In this document: piece after piece, positions 4,694 through 22,343 of the stretch
Position numbering within the stretch: the stretch's first letter is position 1
Layout of the letters: every line of letters begins with the position of its first letter
Sequence record: PV173775
Source of the DNA: Escherichia phage GEP001
Direction: 5' to 3' (one strand)
DNA: 64,000 nucleotides
Translations under genes and position numbers: made by a program
Notes under the pieces: model-generated
Told to the model about the DNA's origin: nothing
Databases searched by the model: none
What the model saw: only the letters and a program-made list of their open reading frames with translations

Positions 4694-6751
4694 ATGGAAC
4701 TTATTACAGAATTATTTGACGGCGCTTCGGCGCCGGTTGTTAACTTAAATCCTAAGCATAAAATACCTCAAATTTTTGCTATTCAAGCCGGTGAAGAAAG
4801 CGTGCTTCCTGGATTTAGATTTTGTACATACACCTCTGGCGGTGATACAAATAAAAACGTTAAGCCAGGCGATAAAATGATGCATATCGTAATGATAGGT
4901 GTTAATGAGAAACTATCATTAGTTAAACTTAAAAACTTAGGTGGAAATCCAATTGGTGTCATTAATGCGGTTTTTGATACTGCTCTTCAGACAATGAAAC
5001 AGTACAAAATTGACGCATGCTTATTCCGCGTACTAAAGAGTAAAACAAATGGCGCAGCTCGACAAATTCAAGTTATTGCTGACCGTTTAGTACGTACTAA
5101 AGGAGCAGGTCGATATGTTCTTTTAAAAGAAATCTGGGATTACGATAAAAAGTACGCATATATTATGGTTTACCGTAAAAATGCTAATTTAGAAGACATT
5201 CCAGGTGTACCTCCTATTTCAACTGAGTTATTCACAAAAGTTGAATCAAAGGTTGGTGATGTTTATGTAGATGTTAAAACAGGTAATGCTGTTCCTAAAG
5301 CTGTTGCTGTTGCTGCTTCTATTGCTTTAGAAAATGATAAGCGCACGGATCAAGCTGTTATTCAGAAAACTAAAATTAGTCGTCGATTAGCAGCACAAGC
5401 TCAATACTCTACTGTCGATGCTTCACTTCAGGGTGATAGCTTCGCTGCTAAGAAATATCAAGAGTTTGAATCTAAAGTTCCGGTATATAAAGCAGAAGGA
5501 CCAATGAACTCCGGCGTTATTCAGGTTGGTTCAAACTTCAGCAAAGGAGCTATCGGTGGTATGAGAAGTGCTTCTCGTTTTAAATCTAATGATTATGAAC
5601 TAGAAAGCTTCCGAAATCATATTGCATTGGCTCATGCACGTTTACGTGATCCATCTATCAAGTTACAGAGCGATATAACATATCAAGGTTCTCAAGAATA
5701 TTTAAAGAATAAAGAATTTTTTGATTATAAAACTGATAAAATTTTAAGCGATCTTGCTGACATTAATATTTCTAATAGCTTTGATGTTATTAAGAAAATT
5801 GTCAATGATTTAGTTAAAGGTTCTAAAGCCACACCAGATGAAAAGGTAGCTATTGTTCAATTTGTCATGAATGGCATTTATAAATTGATTAATGAGTCTG
5901 CTTCTCAAGCGTATGAATATGCAAGTACTGAAGTACCCCCAAAAGGATTAACTCAAGCTGAGTCTGATGTAATTGAAGATTATTGCGCAGATTCATATGT
6001 TGAAATGAACTCGTTCCTTTTAGGTAAACCAGATTCTACTCGTGAAGAATATATGGAACGAGCTATTAAACACATCGAGACAATGGATTCTGCTTTTGCC
6101 AAAGGATCAGTTCTTCCTCCAGGAACTACGCTTTACCGTGGCCAAGAAGTTACCTTTAAAACTTTACGTCATAATATTGAAAATAAAATGTTCTATTTTA
6201 AGAACTTCGTATCCACATCGCTTAAACCAAATATCTTCGGTGAGTATGGTAAAAACTATATGGCCCTAGATGATTCCGGCACAGTATTTTCTGGTGAAGG
6301 AGAAGGTTCAGTTGATGCTGAAGATTTGATGCATATGGGCAGTCATTCTGCGTATGCCAATGAAGATGCTGAAACTAGCGTTGGTATGGTAATTAAAGGA
6401 GCTGAGCGAATCAAAGTTATCGTTCCAGGTCATTTATCAGGATTTCCATCAGAAGCTGAAGTTATTTTACCGCGTGGAATTTTGCTGAAGATTAATAAAG
6501 TGAGTACGTACATGATGAAAGAAACTGCTTATAACAAGTATCTAATCGAAGGCACAATCGTTCCTCCTTCTGAACAATTAGAAGAATCGGTATATGATGG
6601 TGACCATCTGATGGAAACTGGTGAAGTTCGTCCAATGACTGGATTTAACCAATTCCTTGTAGAAGAATCAAAAGAAGAGGAAAACGAAGTTTCTCAAATC
6701 TTGGCTTCTTTGGTTAACATCAACGGAATGTCTAAAAAGTTCAAGATGTAG
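4694..6751 (+). CDS. Alt-like ADP-ribosyltransferase, copy 2 (tandem paralog)
   Basis: 685 aa; N-terminal ~230 aa clearly homologous to copy 1 (MELITELFD..., GFRFCTYTSGGDTN, KMMHIV, QYKIDAC, RQIQVIADRL); middle region diverged; ART motifs retained (TLYRGQ, FVSTSL, SEAEVILPRG). Confidence 0.8.
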   Translation: MELITELFDGASAPVVNLNPKHKIPQIFAIQAGEESVLPGFRFCTYTSGGDTNKNVKPGDKMMHIVMIGVNEKLSLVKLKNLGGNPIGVINAVFDTALQTMKQYKIDACLFRVLKSKTNGAARQIQVIADRLVRTKGAGRYVLLKEIWDYDKKYAYIMVYRKNANLEDIPGVPPISTELFTKVESKVGDVYVDVKTGNAVPKAVAVAASIALENDKRTDQAVIQKTKISRRLAAQAQYSTVDASLQGDSFAAKKYQEFESKVPVYKAEGPMNSGVIQVGSNFSKGAIGGMRSASRFKSNDYELESFRNHIALAHARLRDPSIKLQSDITYQGSQEYLKNKEFFDYKTDKILSDLADINISNSFDVIKKIVNDLVKGSKATPDEKVAIVQFVMNGIYKLINESASQAYEYASTEVPPKGLTQAESDVIEDYCADSYVEMNSFLLGKPDSTREEYMERAIKHIETMDSAFAKGSVLPPGTTLYRGQEVTFKTLRHNIENKMFYFKNFVSTSLKPNIFGEYGKNYMALDDSGTVFSGEGEGSVDAEDLMHMGSHSAYANEDAETSVGMVIKGAERIKVIVPGHLSGFPSEAEVILPRGILLKINKVSTYMMKETAYNKYLIEGTIVPPSEQLEESVYDGDHLMETGEVRPMTGFNQFLVEESKEEENEVSQILASLVNINGMSKKFKM

Positions 6752-6780
6752 TTTACAAGTCCCTCGTGTTGTGTTATAGT
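6752..6780 (+). promoter_or_regulatory. sigma70-type early promoter for the 96-aa ORF
   Basis: -35 TTTACA (6752-6757), 17 nt spacer, -10 TATAGT (6775-6780). Confidence 0.55.
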
Positions 6781-6811
6781 AATTTTACTTACATAACATG
6801 AGGAACACAAA

Positions 6812-7102
6812 ATGAAATCTTCTTTGCGCTTTTTAGGTCAAGAACTTGTAGTTGAAGGCGTTATTCCTGCTGATAATGCTTTTAATGAAGCAGTTTATGA
6901 TGAATTTATCAAAATTTTTGGAACAGATAAAAAGTTTGGAATTTTTCCTTCTGAAAATTTTTCAAAGCCACAGCAGACTGAAAGCATTTTCCAAGGTGTA
7001 GTAACAGGTAAATTTGAGTCAGAAGCTCCGGTAAAAATTGAAGTTTATATTGAAGACAGTTTAGTTGCTTCAGTTGCTGCTTTTATTTCATTCCGTAAAT
7101 AA
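6812..7102 (+). CDS. hypothetical protein, 96 aa (early-gene cassette)
   Basis: ORF with SD GAGGA, preceded by sigma70-like early promoter (6752-6780) and followed by hairpin 7107-7128. Confidence 0.5.
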   Translation: MKSSLRFLGQELVVEGVIPADNAFNEAVYDEFIKIFGTDKKFGIFPSENFSKPQQTESIFQGVVTGKFESEAPVKIEVYIEDSLVASVAAFISFRK

Positions 7103-7106
7103 AAAT

Positions 7107-7128
7107 ATGGGGACCGAAAGGTCCCCAT
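7107..7128. terminator. bidirectional hairpin terminator between the 96-aa ORF and gene 54
   Basis: ATGGGGACC-GAAA-GGTCCCCAT flanked by A-run upstream and T-run downstream. Confidence 0.65.
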
Positions 7129-7132
7129 TGTT

Positions 7133-8098
7133 TTATATTGCTCCTAATATTTTACTTTGCGAGTTGACAATTCCCGTCATAGTATTAATGTTTGAAATGC
7201 TTCCAGCAGTTCCTCCTAATCTACTAAGTCGTGAAAGCGAATTAGATAGTCCAGTAACGCCTCCGCTATTTCCGAGAACGCTTTGAATGCCATTTATAGC
7301 AGCAGATTCAAGCCACTCAAGCGCAGCTTGTCTATCAACTGCTCCAGCCTGCATAACTCTATACGCAAAAGTAACATCAAATGTAGTTATTTGGTTATCT
7401 CCATCATATGATAACTCAGGAGCGCTCACTGACACTGGAATGCATCCGGTGAACATCACTGCAGTATGAGGTAATCCATTACGAGCATGAAGATTAACTT
7501 GAATATCTGCCTCGACATCTTGTGGTAAAGCACGCAGTCCAGTTACTGGGTCTTGAACAGAGTTAACCCAGTCTTGCATTGCACGATAGTTACATGCTTC
7601 TGAATCCATTCTAAATGAAATAACCAAAGGGTCTAATTCTCTCCCAGTTATACGAATATTAGGAGAATTATAGTTCCAGTCAGTTTCATAGGATAATCTA
7701 TTCTCTGGCATTTTTACAGAATATATCATCAATCCAGATGAGTTATATGCCATGTTAAAGAAGTCAATTAAATATGTACCAACTGTAAATGAGCCCAATA
7801 AACTTTGAACTGTACGTTGACTCATGGCACCAATAAGATATTTACTAACCCCTGATTTTCTTATCAGTTTTTGTGTGCCAGCTGTAATTAGCGTGGTAAT
7901 TCCCTGATTAATATCGCCTTGAGTCAATCCTAACCAATCTGAATTTAGACCCAAGTTATTATAAGAAAAGTTGCTAATTGAACTTATCAACGAAGAGCTT
8001 TTAGTTGATGGAGTTGTCGCAAAAACGCAGCTAAACATATTATTACGTTGGAAATCTGCGTTTATTGCTTGATTATTAAATTCCTCTAAAGAATACAT
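7133..8098 (-). CDS. 54: baseplate tail-tube initiator (T4 gp54)
   Basis: 321 aa, length and position match T4 gp54 between alt region and gene 48. Confidence 0.85.
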   Translation of the reverse strand: MYSLEEFNNQAINADFQRNNMFSCVFATTPSTKSSSLISSISNFSYNNLGLNSDWLGLTQGDINQGITTLITAGTQKLIRKSGVSKYLIGAMSQRTVQSLLGSFTVGTYLIDFFNMAYNSSGLMIYSVKMPENRLSYETDWNYNSPNIRITGRELDPLVISFRMDSEACNYRAMQDWVNSVQDPVTGLRALPQDVEADIQVNLHARNGLPHTAVMFTGCIPVSVSAPELSYDGDNQITTFDVTFAYRVMQAGAVDRQAALEWLESAAINGIQSVLGNSGGVTGLSNSLSRLSRLGGTAGSISNINTMTGIVNSQSKILGAI

Positions 8099-9192
8099 TA
8101 AAAAGTCCCCGCATATAAAGAAGCACGGTTTAACGTGATAATTTCTCTCATAGTAATCTCAAGAGTAAATGTACTAGGGAGGTTTGGAGCAATAGCTAAT
8201 CCGTTAAAGTTACCATTAGGTGTTTTATCAAATCTGATGCTCTGTATTTGGCATGGGCCAAATATTTCCGTTTTTCCATCAAACTTAGATGTTGCACCAA
8301 AGTTTTTCACCATCCAAATTGTCGGGTTTGAAACTACTAGAACGTTAGTTAAACTCGATGTCATTTTCTCAAATAGTGTTTTATTTTTAGCTGCGTCTTC
8401 CGGAGATAAAGGTTCAATTAACGTAGAACGATACCAATCATCTAAATACCCCTTTATTTCAGCAGCATATTGAGATTTGCCAGTTTCACCATAAGAAAAA
8501 TAGTTAAAATATTGATAGATATTAATAATAGCCATCAAATCTTCTGTTGAACGTGGAGTCAAATCCCATGTAAACACTTTAGTTCTATTCTCAGCACCAC
8601 CATACATACTTCTGGCTGTCGTATAAATCTGTTCATTATTATCAGCCATTATACCTTGTGTTATACTTTCCAGTGCCCCAAATACTGCAGTTGAAGCAAT
8701 ATTACTTAGCACACCAGTAGCAGTACCTCCGCCTCTGCTGATAAGACTTTCTTGAACATCATTAAATCTATGTGATGATGTATCAACATCAGATTTAGAT
8801 CTCGGTAAAAGAATGTTTGCGACAGGGGCTTTACTTATTGTTCCTGAATTATTATCTGATATTAATCCATTTGACAGTTTTGATACTGTATTACTGATAG
8901 TGTTTCTGGCTGTACGTAAAATACTCGAAGATGAAGAAGAGTAGTTAGATCTCATCGATCTAAGACTTCCAGAATCCCTAGATGACATATTGTATGCAGT
9001 AAATAATAATCCATTCTTATATAGATCTGTTACCTGGAAGTCCCCTGTAGTGTCATTACCACTAGCACGCCCAGTTGGAAACTGGGCAGTGTATGTTTTA
9101 GTTGCTACTTCTGATTTAGTACTCTGTCCGGCTGAAATTTTCTCACCGGACTTTTTAATTAAATCAGCAGTTATTTCTTTAACAATTGCCAT
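8098..9192 (-). CDS. 48: baseplate tail-tube cap (T4 gp48)
   Basis: 364 aa, same as T4 gp48; synteny 54-48-29. Confidence 0.85.
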   Translation of the reverse strand: MAIVKEITADLIKKSGEKISAGQSTKSEVATKTYTAQFPTGRASGNDTTGDFQVTDLYKNGLLFTAYNMSSRDSGSLRSMRSNYSSSSSSILRTARNTISNTVSKLSNGLISDNNSGTISKAPVANILLPRSKSDVDTSSHRFNDVQESLISRGGGTATGVLSNIASTAVFGALESITQGIMADNNEQIYTTARSMYGGAENRTKVFTWDLTPRSTEDLMAIINIYQYFNYFSYGETGKSQYAAEIKGYLDDWYRSTLIEPLSPEDAAKNKTLFEKMTSSLTNVLVVSNPTIWMVKNFGATSKFDGKTEIFGPCQIQSIRFDKTPNGNFNGLAIAPNLPSTFTLEITMREIITLNRASLYAGTF

Positions 9193-19621: not shown

Positions 19622-20626
19622 ATGTTTAAAAAGTATAGCAGTCTTGAAAATCATTACAATTCTAAATTCATTGAAAAACTTTATAGTTTAGGATTGACTG
19701 GCGGCGAATGGGTAGCTCGCGAAAAGATTCACGGTACAAACTTTTCATTGATTATTGAGCGTGATAAAGCAACTTGTGCTAAACGTACTGGACCGATTCT
19801 TCCTGCTGAAGATTTCTTTGGGTATGAAATTATTCTAAAGAATTATACTGATTCCATTAAAGCAGTACAAGATATTATGGAAACTTCAGCAGTTGTATCT
19901 TATCAAGTCTTTGGCGAATTCGCTGGACCTGGTATTCAGAAGAATGTCGATTATGGCGATAAAGATTTTTATGTATTTGACATTATTGTTACTACCGAAA
20001 GTGGTGATGTGACTTATGTCGATGATTATATGATGGAATCATTCTGTAATACATTTAAATTTAAAATGGCTCCACTTTTAGGTCGCGGTAAATTTGAAGA
20101 GCTTATTAAATTGCCAAATGATTTAGATTCTGTCGTTCAAGATTATAATTTTACAGTAGACCATGCTGGATTAGTTGATGCAAATAAATGCGTTTGGAAT
20201 GCCGAAGCAAAAGGCGAAGTATTTACCGCTGAAGGTTATGTATTGAAACCTTGTTATCCTTCTTGGATGCCTAACGGAAATCGTGTAGCTATTAAATGCA
20301 AGAACTCTAAATTTAGTGAAAAGAAAAAGTCTGATAAGCCTATTAAAGCTAAAGTTGAGCTGTCAGAAGCTGATAATAAATTGCTGGGAATTTTAGCTTG
20401 CTACGTTACACTGAACCGAGTAAATAACGTTATTTCTAAAATTGGCGAAATTGGTCCAAAGGATTTTGGAAAGGTGATGGGACTAACTGTTCAAGATATT
20501 TTGGAAGAAACTTCTCGTGAAGGTATTACTTTAACTCAAGCGGATAATCCTTCTTTGATTAAGAAGGAATTAGTTAAAATGGTACAAGATGTACTTCGTC
20601 CGGCTTGGATTGAATTAGTGAGTTAA
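19622..20626 (+). CDS. rnlB: RNA ligase 2 (Rnl2)
   Basis: 334 aa; nucleotidyltransferase lysine motif K-I-H-G ([10 protein letters not shown]). Confidence 0.9.
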
Positions 20627-20630
20627 ATAA

Positions 20631-20652
20631 AAAGGGACCGAAAGGTCCCTTT
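20631..20652. terminator. bidirectional hairpin terminator between rnlB and gene 24
   Basis: AAAGGGACC-GAAA-GGTCCCTTT then TGTTTTATT; same GGGACCGAAAGGTCCC core as the hairpin at 7110. Confidence 0.65.
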
Positions 20653-20655
20653 GTT

Positions 20656-21939
20656 TTATTCATCAACGATAATTTTTGGTAGCTTAACACCCAATAAAAC
20701 AGACAAATCTGAACGACCCGCCATTTTATCCATGTCTCCACCATCAATTATTCTTGCTTCTTTTTCATCTTTTGCTACAGTGTAAGGATTTGCAGATAAA
20801 GCATATCTAACCAATAAACCGATAGATGGCTGCAAACTTTCTGGATCAACTACAACTTTAAATGCACCTACATGTTCAGGGTCATCTAAGTCAAGACCTT
20901 CTGTATACGGAGCATAGAAAATTGATCCAACAATTTCTTTTTCGCCAATATTTTCTACCACACCGACGATTACATAATCTAATGGGCTGTTAGTATCGCA
21001 ATAAAGCGGTAAACCATTAGCTAAAAACCCGTAGGCATTTTGTGAAAGATATTTATCATCTTCTGGTTTATGTTTTAACCAACCTGATGCAGCAAGAATC
21101 GCAGCAGCACGAGCTGAAGCAACACAGAACGTTGCTGTATAAGTTGATTCTTTTTGGATATGTGAAACCATTTCACATACCATTCGGTATAATGAACGAC
21201 CAGCTTCAGGTGCAGATGCATAGCTCAAATCAATGAATCCAGTGTCAGTAATTCCTGTAACTTTATATCGTTTTGATACTGTAATCAAAGACTGTAGAAT
21301 ATCTTTATTGATTTCATCCGCCATTTCAGTTGCAAGCAAATCTTCCAAGAAATTAGGAGCATCGAATCCATTTGCTTCTAAATCTTGTGCTAATTCAACT
21401 GTGATGCCAGTTTTAAGTTTACGAGATTTAACTGCGGTTTGCCATTTATTAATCTGGAATCTAGCATCCGCAATTTCGCTATCAGAGCTTTCAAATTTGC
21501 TCGTTGACGCTGCGTCAGAAAATAGACGAACCTTTAAAAGAACAATTGCAATCTGAAGAGCTAATTCTAAATCGCTTTCTTCAATAGTAGCAAATGGTGT
21601 ATCTTCTAATACTTTATAGACGATATTATTGTATTTGAATAAATCGCCTTTATTGAGAGTTAATTTAGACTCTTCTGTTAATTCTGTGATTTGTTCTCGG
21701 TCTACATATCCAGCTTCGCCAGCGTAAGTAGCACCAGTTTTAAATGTAAATTCGTTATCTGGATTAAGGTATTTGATACCATAAAAAGCAGCAACAGGTT
21801 GATTAGTTCTTTGCGTTGCTACAATGTCAGAATATATTAATTTAGTGGTAGCGCGAGTCAAAGCAACGAGATTTGGGCGACCGATTGAGTTGCTATTCGT
21901 TGTGGTTGATTCGCGCAGAAGTTCGTTGATTTTAGCCAT
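20656..21939 (-). CDS. 24: capsid vertex protein (T4 gp24)
   Basis: 427 aa as T4 gp24; late promoter at 21968-21975. Confidence 0.9.
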   Translation of the reverse strand: MAKINELLRESTTTNSNSIGRPNLVALTRATTKLIYSDIVATQRTNQPVAAFYGIKYLNPDNEFTFKTGATYAGEAGYVDREQITELTEESKLTLNKGDLFKYNNIVYKVLEDTPFATIEESDLELALQIAIVLLKVRLFSDAASTSKFESSDSEIADARFQINKWQTAVKSRKLKTGITVELAQDLEANGFDAPNFLEDLLATEMADEINKDILQSLITVSKRYKVTGITDTGFIDLSYASAPEAGRSLYRMVCEMVSHIQKESTYTATFCVASARAAAILAASGWLKHKPEDDKYLSQNAYGFLANGLPLYCDTNSPLDYVIVGVVENIGEKEIVGSIFYAPYTEGLDLDDPEHVGAFKVVVDPESLQPSIGLLVRYALSANPYTVAKDEKEARIIDGGDMDKMAGRSDLSVLLGVKLPKIIVDE

Positions 21940-21967: not shown

Positions 21968-21975
21968 TATTTATA
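21968..21975 (-). promoter_or_regulatory. late promoter for gene 24
   Basis: TATAAATA on minus strand about 30 nt upstream of gene 24 start. Confidence 0.6.
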
Positions 21976-21983
21976 AAAGTTGT

Positions 21984-22012
21984 TTACAGCAAGGTTATCA
22001 CATGTTACTATA
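21984..22012 (+). promoter_or_regulatory. sigma70-type early promoter for the 88-aa ORF between genes 24 and 23
   Basis: AAAGTTGTTTACA with -35 TTTACA, 17 nt spacer, -10 TACTAT. Confidence 0.6.
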
Positions 22013-22041
22013 GACCTATCAAAAACATGAGGAGATTAAAA

Positions 22042-22308
22042 ATGAACAAGTTAAACTTTATTCGTACTACTCTGTCCGCTCTTGATAAAGACATCAAAGC
22101 CCTGGTAGAAAAATATGGTTCCAATCCTAACGGTAATGCAGTGAATGCCCTAGTTAAGAAATATGAAACCATGGCTTATGCTACTGACTTCTGGTGGAAC
22201 GGTGAATATTCTACCCATACCAAAGACAAATCTGGTAACTGGCTGAAAATCCAAGAAAATCGTATTGACTTCCGTGACATCATCAACCGTCGAGTTAAGA
22301 TTGCGTAG
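22042..22308 (+). CDS. hypothetical early protein, 88 aa (cassette between genes 24 and 23)
   Basis: ATG at 22042 with SD GAGGA (track ORF starts 22027); early promoter 21984-22012; hairpin 22322-22343; opposite strand to flanking late genes. Confidence 0.55.
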   Translation: MNKLNFIRTTLSALDKDIKALVEKYGSNPNGNAVNALVKKYETMAYATDFWWNGEYSTHTKDKSGNWLKIQENRIDFRDIINRRVKIA

Positions 22309-22321
22309 TATAGAAACAAGA

Positions 22322-22343
22322 ATGGGAGACCGAAGTCTCCCAT
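22322..22343. terminator. bidirectional hairpin between the 88-aa ORF and gene 23
   Basis: ATGGGAGAC-CGAAG-TCTCCCAT between convergent gene ends. Confidence 0.6.

Follow-up and report, generated by a model that had tools for sequence, protein, structure and literature searches.

The window, by which we mean the whole stretch of 64,000 nucleotides of Escherichia phage GEP001 that was analyzed (record PV173775), is a segment of a Tequatrovirus (T4-like) genome; in a DNA search with a 701-nt query spanning the locus described here, at least 497 phage records matched at 90-99% identity and covered at least 80% of the query. The locus lies between a second alt paralogue and gene 54 and comprises the following features:

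4694..6751, + strand: second alt paralogue, 685 aa, an Alt-like ADP-ribosyltransferase (Pfam ADPrib_exo_Tox, E = 3e-20; phrog_802, E = 4.5e-255)
6751..6780, + strand: predicted T4-type early (sigma-70) promoter, 10/12 match, extended -10
6798..6804, + strand: leader motif ATGAGGA with the Shine-Dalgarno sequence GAGGA, invariant in 8/8 aligned sequences
6812..7102, + strand: alt.-3 coding sequence, 96 aa, DUF5498 (Pfam PF17602)
7097..7140, both strands: predicted bidirectional intrinsic terminator (A-tract, hairpin at 7107-7128, T-tract)
7133..8098, - strand: gene 54 (baseplate tail-tube initiator), 321 aa, converging on alt.-3 (phrog_45, E = 7e-73)

The initial annotation had described this stretch as a cassette of promoter, 96-aa ORF and hairpin, built like another cassette between genes 23 and 24. 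All three elements are present at these positions, and the same layout was found at the 23/24 site. A second Alt is also annotated in the records of phages PP01, RB32, T2 and IME08, and the label 54 is used in the annotations of T4, PP01 and RB32. The TAG stop codon of the second alt copy (6749-6751) runs directly into the next unit, its final G being the first base of the -35 element of the alt.-3 promoter. At the other end of the unit, the stop codons of alt.-3 (7100-7102, + strand) and gene 54 (7133-7135, - strand) converge across a gap of 30 nt, 22 of which are taken up by the hairpin, with 4 bases separating it from the alt.-3 stop and another 4 from the gene 54 stop.

The 96-aa ORF had initially been treated as an unknown ORF; homology searches name it as alt.-3, a member of DUF5498. 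The protein matches Pfam PF17602 over positions 1-96 of 96 (E = 5.3e-64; 213.2 bits, cut-off 27) as well as phrog_1739, a family without an assigned function, and it is 99% identical to, and of the same length as, T4 Alt.-3 (NP_049808); the name alt.-3 is given in the T4, PP01, RB32 and IME08 annotations. Alt.-3 has been described as an uncharacterized 96-aa protein, and an alt.-3 deletion mutant is viable (Vassallo et al., Nature 2024; PMC11618068). Homologues numbered 7 in a single-sequence search, 37 in a profile search and 16 in an exhaustive HMMER search, and all of them were phage proteins to which no function is assigned. Against PDB sequences, the Alt.-3 profile gave no match below E = 0.66, and a search of BFVD returned only uncharacterized Straboviridae proteins. 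Alt.-3 is a well-folded (AF2 model, pLDDT 95.5), non-essential protein that is specific to Straboviridae.

The alt.-3 promoter consists of GTTTACA (6751-6757), a spacer of 17 nt and TATAGT (6775-6780), with TG at 6772-6773 forming an extended -10 element (TGtTATAGT), so the early promoter claimed initially (TTTACA at 6752-6757, 17 nt, TATAGT) is indeed there. With its 10/12 match and extended -10, it was the top-scoring site of the promoter scan between 4 and 10 kb, and transcription would start near 6787; GAGGA lies 7 nt upstream of the alt.-3 ATG. We aligned the 80 nt preceding the start codon at seven orthologous loci (6-7 genera) and at the window's 23/24 cassette, and found that GTTTAC, the TG.TA...T of the -10 region, ATGAGGA and the ATG are invariant and that spacer and leader vary; these promoter elements are kept despite the Alt.-3 proteins of the same loci falling to 24-56% identity. 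Within the window, GTTTAC-N17-19-TAnnnT occurs at 6 sites, 6/6 of them on the + (early-gene) strand. Relative to TTTACW-N17-TAYWAT, the early-promoter consensus of the PST and T4 PeSL elements (Comeau et al., 2014; PMC4122927), the alt.-3 promoter has one deviation, a G at position 5 of the -10 box. Taken by its sequence, it is a standard T4 early promoter, which would be active and would act at early times.

A separate observation concerns the spacer of the promoter, which in other genera contains a short inverted repeat, CCACA-nGGA-TGTGG (L003 3951-3968, L004 3948-3965, L006 3949-3966 and L005 3951-3968). The Melville spacer is different yet self-complementary (ACATCC...GGATGT), and in the window and in T4 the repeat is only weakly developed.

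The hairpin between alt.-3 and gene 54, ATGGGGACC-GAAA-GGTCCCCAT (7107-7128), is a perfect palindrome with a 9-bp stem that includes 6 GC pairs. It scanned as terminator-like on both the + and the - strand, with the tails TGTTTTAT (+) and ATTTTTAT (-), and its RNA is predicted to fold with -24.1 kcal/mol on the + strand (z = -7.4) and -19.3 kcal/mol on the - strand (z = -6.5). Neither T-tract is continuous (TTGTTTTAT on the + strand, ATTTTTATTT on the - strand). The stem at the orthologous site is GGAGAGC/GCTCTCC in IME08, GGGAGCC/GGCTCCC in Marfa, GGGGACC/GGTCCCC in Melville, GGGAGAGC/GCTCTCCC in EcS1 and GGGGCC/GGCCCC in the Klebsiella phage Roth01, and in each of these five phages an A-run precedes it and a T-run follows it. 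An RNAalifold analysis of 8 sequences, a small sample aligned with MAFFT, recovered 9 pairs, 6/9 of which have compensatory double changes. The depositors of KAW1E185, G50, Marfa and Melville annotated a "terminator" at this site, and Rfam gave only sub-threshold noise around the hairpin.

Because the gap between the converging genes is only 30 nt, A- and T-tracts flank the stem, folding is strong on both strands and the stem shows compensatory changes, the hairpin is best read as a bidirectional intrinsic terminator, which would end transcripts arriving from either side. In Aeromonas phage 44RR, which does not have alt.-3, an A-tract, a hairpin and a T-tract (AAAGGGAGCC-cta-GGGCTCCCTTTTT) lie directly between alt and 54; since this equivalent element is present without the ORF, the putative terminator seems to belong to the point where early and late transcription converge and not to the ORF.

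It should be mentioned that the T4 reference NC_000866 (L002 5725-5745) has ATGGACC as the left arm of this stem, where T4 strain 147 (KJ477685; L056) and all other relatives have ATGGGGACC. The variant lowers the predicted stability of the stem from about -24 to about -9 kcal/mol, and it probably goes back to an old gel-compression artefact in the reference sequence. A scan of IMG/VR with a 16-mer at the alt.-3 stop retrieved 43 loci, nearly all of them chance matches; the only Tequatrovirus loci among them were L019, L020, L041 and L050, and L031 was a distant relative.

The 16-nt hairpin core, GGGACCGAAAGGTCCC, has exactly two copies in the window, at 7110-7125 and 20634-20649, where 0 would be expected (100 shuffles). 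The second is an identical copy between rnlB and gene 24, as initially reported, and forms part of a further feature:

20624..20662, both strands: second predicted bidirectional terminator, AAAGGGACC-GAAA-GGTCCCTTT (hairpin at 20631-20652), with the same 16-nt core

This hairpin, whose sequence is identical in T4, is predicted to fold with -19.0 and -16.8 kcal/mol on the two strands, and it is flanked by a 334-aa ORF (19622..20626, + strand), which corresponds to T4 rnlB, and a 427-aa ORF (20656..21939, - strand), which corresponds to T4 gene 24. The flanks TAAATAAAAA ... TTGTTTTAT are partly common to both sites, and the two sites are alike at roughly 35/41 positions including gaps, beyond what bare consensus needs would demand. 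Comparison of the window with itself (whole-window repeat scan) returned the hairpin pair as family D10, with no further copy. At rnlB/24, the same kind of device thus recurs at a further place where early and late transcription converge. What the two sites have in common, core and flanks, is put down to equal functional demands, namely a stop codon, an A-tract, a G-rich stem, a stable tetraloop and a T-tract, to which a Tequatrovirus-specific common origin may possibly be added, and is not a sign of a mobile cassette. In IME08 and EcS1 the stems of the two sites do not resemble each other, so the likeness of the cores is specific to Tequatrovirus. For the same reason, concerted evolution of the two sites in every genus was considered and rejected.

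To what extent the alt.-3 unit is fixed in place was addressed by comparison with other phages. A tblastn search found alt.-3 in 836 phage records, 498 at 90% identity or more and 338 below 60%. Tequatrovirus-type gp54 was found at 95% identity or more in 499 records, so practically every Tequatrovirus has alt.-3, and no insertion, deletion or replacement of alt.-3 was encountered among these close relatives (498 versus 499 records). The order alt -> alt.-3 -> followed by the converging <- 54 -> 48 -> 29 is found in T4, PP01, RB32, T2 and teqskov, and again in IME08 (Dhakavirus), Marfa (Marfavirus), Melville (Gelderlandvirus) and EcS1 (Kagamiyamavirus). Counting a Klebsiella Jiaodavirus-like phage, the context extends to at least five other genera, with promoter, Shine-Dalgarno sequence and hairpin laid out alike; the slot of Klebsiella phage Roth01 holds a 92-aa ORF that is below the Pfam threshold and aligns with Alt.-3, with the same promoter, leader and hairpin layout. 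Finding a conserved T4 gene in the same context argues against recent modular insertion, and it is the very outcome that the initial annotation had named as speaking against it. Over larger distances the slot does change: in ECD7 (Krischvirus) it holds an unrelated 161-aa ORF, in 44RR there is no ORF between alt and 54, and in Acinetobacter phage Kimel alt is co-directional with gene 54.

The only structural difference adjoining the alt.-3 unit is a deletion in T4, which is without about 1.69 kb of the second alt copy and retains alt.-1/alt.-2 as a remnant; the full 685-aa paralogue is kept in the window phage, T2, RB32, PP01 and teqskov. The junction of this deletion is a 9-nt coding microhomology, CTAAA(A/G)AGT (5035-5043 and 6731-6739 in the window), that lies 20 nt before the -35 element, outside both promoter and hairpin.

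The 23/24 cassette (21982-22343 in the window) comprises GTTTACA-17-TACTAT, ATGAGGAG, an 88-aa ORF that has no Pfam match, and the hairpin ATGGGAGAC-cgaa-GTCTCCCAT. Its presence truly varies between phages, the cassette being missing in RB32 and teqskov and having segD in its place in T4. Shuffling of promoters and stem-loops is an idea already published under the name PeSLs, which are cassettes of an early promoter and a stem-loop that flank ORFans in the hyperplastic regions of T4-type phages, recombine and form mini-circles (PMC2839356; PMC4122927). As a statement about a class of loci, modular exchange is reasonable, and the alt-54 slot itself varies over deep time (ECD7, 44RR); of what had been proposed for alt.-3 in particular, the anatomy and the repeated core are borne out, and a role as recombination substrate or recent insertion is not, given the fixed position.

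The whole-window repeat scan also returned an early-promoter family, D4/D5, at 21969, 54313, 54679, 57862 and 61891, of which the alt.-3 promoter is not a member. These promoters share an extended upstream similarity, AATTTCACAAAGTTGTTTAC ... TACTAT ... TCAA (54 nt at 63-78% identity), and they fit the description of PeSLs far better than the alt.-3 promoter does.

We consider it very probable that the locus is a self-contained early transcription unit of alt.-3 with a two-way terminator, and no mobile cassette. Sequence elements, conservation, covariation, gene identity and the fixed position are directly seen, and from them we infer how the promoter would act and when, and termination in both directions. 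In this model, alt.-3 would be the last gene of the early-strand block ending at alt, and host sigma-70 RNA polymerase would start at the T4-class early promoter that overlaps the upstream alt stop. Translation of Alt.-3 would then be driven by a leader of about 25 nt that includes a strong Shine-Dalgarno sequence, and the hairpin would end two transcripts that reach it from opposite sides, the early one of alt.-3 and the late one of gene 54, probably also protecting both 3' ends. As a result, the converging early and late transcription programmes would be kept from antisense run-through. The annotation of the locus can be tidied in these terms, with the ORF as alt.-3, a standard T4 early promoter and a putative two-way terminator at an early/late boundary, and the unit provides no evidence for modular exchange.

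Three other explanations were weighed against this one. It is conceivable that the hairpin acts mainly as a stabilizer of RNA 3' ends, or as a processing barrier for read-through transcripts, and not as a site of termination. T4 is reportedly known for stable tetraloop hairpins in intercistronic regions, several CUUCGG hairpins occur within the window, the stem with its GNRA loop is very stable and the T-tracts here are interrupted, all of which would suit such a role. We nevertheless regard it as very unlikely as the main function, because the symmetry of A- and T-tracts is kept around unrelated stems in seven other phages, which is the signature of a two-way intrinsic terminator; stabilization and termination do not exclude each other. 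Even less probable, in our estimation, is a mobile cassette of the PeSL type, in which promoter and hairpin would serve as recombination linkers that move alt.-3 in and out, for instance through mini-circles. Such shuffling is known from T4-type phages, among them the pair T4 and PST (PMC2839356; PMC4122927), the 23/24 cassette of the window has the same layout and is truly variable, and the alt-54 slot differs between genera over deep time, but alt.-3 is fixed in about 498/499 Tequatrovirus records and in five more genera. The unit also does not offer the linkers that this explanation needs: the hairpin scan found no stem-loop upstream of the promoter (none between 4735 and 7107), where the stretch before 6751 is alt coding sequence; no second promoter follows downstream, where the next gene converges; and the whole-window repeat scan found no second copy of the alt.-3 promoter, the unit sharing outside its hairpin just 7-9-nt consensus words with other modules. 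The neighbouring deletion in T4, moreover, went through coding microhomology.

The sole partner of the hairpin, finally, lies far away, the two copies being direct repeats 13.5 kb apart around 54, 48, 29, 28, 27, 51, 26, 25, uvsY and uvsW. Since 54, 48, 29, 28, 27, 51, 26 and 25 are essential according to the RB32 annotation, a crossover between the copies within one genome would be lethal through loss of essential baseplate genes. In the third explanation, ectopic gene conversion would keep the two sites alike as active recombination partners, with the ORF itself immobile. It would account for the identical 16-nt core and the similar flanks, which are seen in the window and, for site 2, also in T4, and for the fact that site 1 of the window uniquely has TTGTTTTAT, as site 2 does, where relatives have TTGTTAT. 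This TT difference, however, falls within a T-run and is easily put down to slippage, the two stems are not equally long (ATGGGGACC versus AAAGGGACC), in other genera the hairpins of the two sites do not resemble each other, and the loop states of the sites are uncoupled (site 1/site 2 being TTTC/GAAA in T4 and teqskov, GAAA/GAAA in the window and TTTC/TTTC in JE01). We therefore give ongoing conversion very little credence, although a one-off copying event between the sites is conceivable. An early transcription unit of alt.-3 closed by a two-way terminator is the reading that we retain.

The loop states just mentioned were counted in the phage collection with 51-nt queries, every 28-mer seed of which includes part of the loop, at the two converging junctions and at a co-directional control:

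7116-7119, loop of site 1, alt.-3/54, converging: GAAA 271, TTTC 211
20640-20643, loop of site 2, rnlB/24, converging: GAAA 242, TTTC 242
2540-2563, control hairpin C(UUCG)G, alt.1 -> alt, co-directional: TTCG 496, flipped 0

Around the site 1 loop, all 47 remaining nt of the query were exact in 210 GAAA and 164 TTTC records. In an alignment of 11 genomes (6760-8100), the window and teqskov show no difference over about 170 nt on the left and about 113 nt on the right side of the hairpin, the flip and a TT indel excepted. Each site 1 loop state is combined there with either allele of the closest SNPs, about 30 nt to each side, which in this small sample argues for recurrent inversion over a single old event. 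Records of the same laboratory phage agree at site 1 (4/4 of T4 with TTTC, 2/2 of T2 with GAAA), and very fast switching is not suggested by these limited data.

On balance, we lean towards the view that both converging-junction hairpins flip recurrently and nearly neutrally, and that the state of the alt.-3/54 hairpin could affect escape from the CmdTAC system discussed below. At a two-way terminator, a flip would merely swap which of the transcripts receives the GNRA loop and would thus be nearly neutral; at a one-way UUCG hairpin it would be selected against. Loop flips bear on the handling of such sites in alignments and phylogenies, and they offer a natural test of the effect of loop orientation on termination.

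A possible further case was noticed in T4 strain 147, between cd.3 and cd.2 (L056 5713-5740), where the depositors flag 14 nt as "inverted complement of previously reported sequence" that "corrects" an early promoter. These 14 nt are exactly the loop between GGTAGAG and CTCTACC and contain the -10 box, which has a 17-nt spacer in one orientation and not in the other. The inversion may be another loop flip and not an error.

The alt.-3/54 hairpin is also of relevance for a published escape route from phage defense. In the study of Vassallo et al., every T4 mutant that escaped CmdTAC had an Alt.-3 lengthened at its C-terminus, to 117 or 110 aa; this longer form blocks degradation of the antitoxin CmdA, and wild-type Alt.-3 neither triggers nor blocks CmdTAC (PMC11618068). 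When the alt.-3 stop codon of T4 strain 147 is read through in translation (L056 16289-16352), the product has exactly 117 aa with the extension KYGDLSVPIVILLLIFYSAN, a length that matches the published escape allele (PMC11618068). Because read-through gives exactly this length, the extension is encoded by the terminator hairpin together with the antisense of the 3' end of gene 54. Read-through in the window phage (7100-7145) gives 111 aa and a different peptide, KYGDRKVPIVLYCS, the tails of the two phages differing because of the flipped loop and the 2-nt longer T-run. The putative terminator thus doubles as reading frame of the Alt.-3 extensions that defeat CmdTAC, with a frame that varies between phages. 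If this is true, the state of the hairpin could affect how readily a phage evolves escape from CmdTAC, which in T4 goes through loss of the alt.-3 stop codon.

Among known systems, the closest is alt.-3 of T4 itself, which occupies the same slot between alt(.-2) and gene 54; its promoter sequence agrees with that of the window except for a few leader bases. The two differ upstream, where T4 has the alt.-1/alt.-2 remnant and the window phage a full-length second alt, and in the hairpin, whose loop is TTTC in T4 and GAAA in the window, with a T-run 2 nt longer in the latter. With PeSLs (Arbiol et al., 2010, PMC2839356; Comeau et al., 2014, PMC4122927), the unit shares a near-consensus early promoter, a Shine-Dalgarno sequence, a small ORF without an assigned function, and a stem-loop terminator by which the unit would be isolated transcriptionally. 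It differs from them in that PeSLs have the stem-loop just upstream of the promoter, occur as tandem elements in hyperplastic regions and vary by indels between close relatives, whereas the alt.-3 unit has its stem-loop downstream of the ORF at a converging junction, has no tandem partner and shows no presence/absence polymorphism.

The hairpin matches the general class of bidirectional Rho-independent terminators in its GC-rich palindrome, its A-tract and T-tract, its placement between converging stops and its prediction on both strands, with no difference of substance, the window element being a predicted one. For the loop flips, the nearest parallel is reportedly found in the hairpin-associated minute inversions of chloroplast non-coding DNA, where, as here, a loop between short inverted-repeat arms occurs in both orientations in close relatives and on the same flanking haplotypes. 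The window case differs from these in concerning a lytic phage and predicted functional terminators, in the frequency of the flipped state (about 45-50%), and in that the flips, among the cases tested, are restricted to hairpins at converging junctions.
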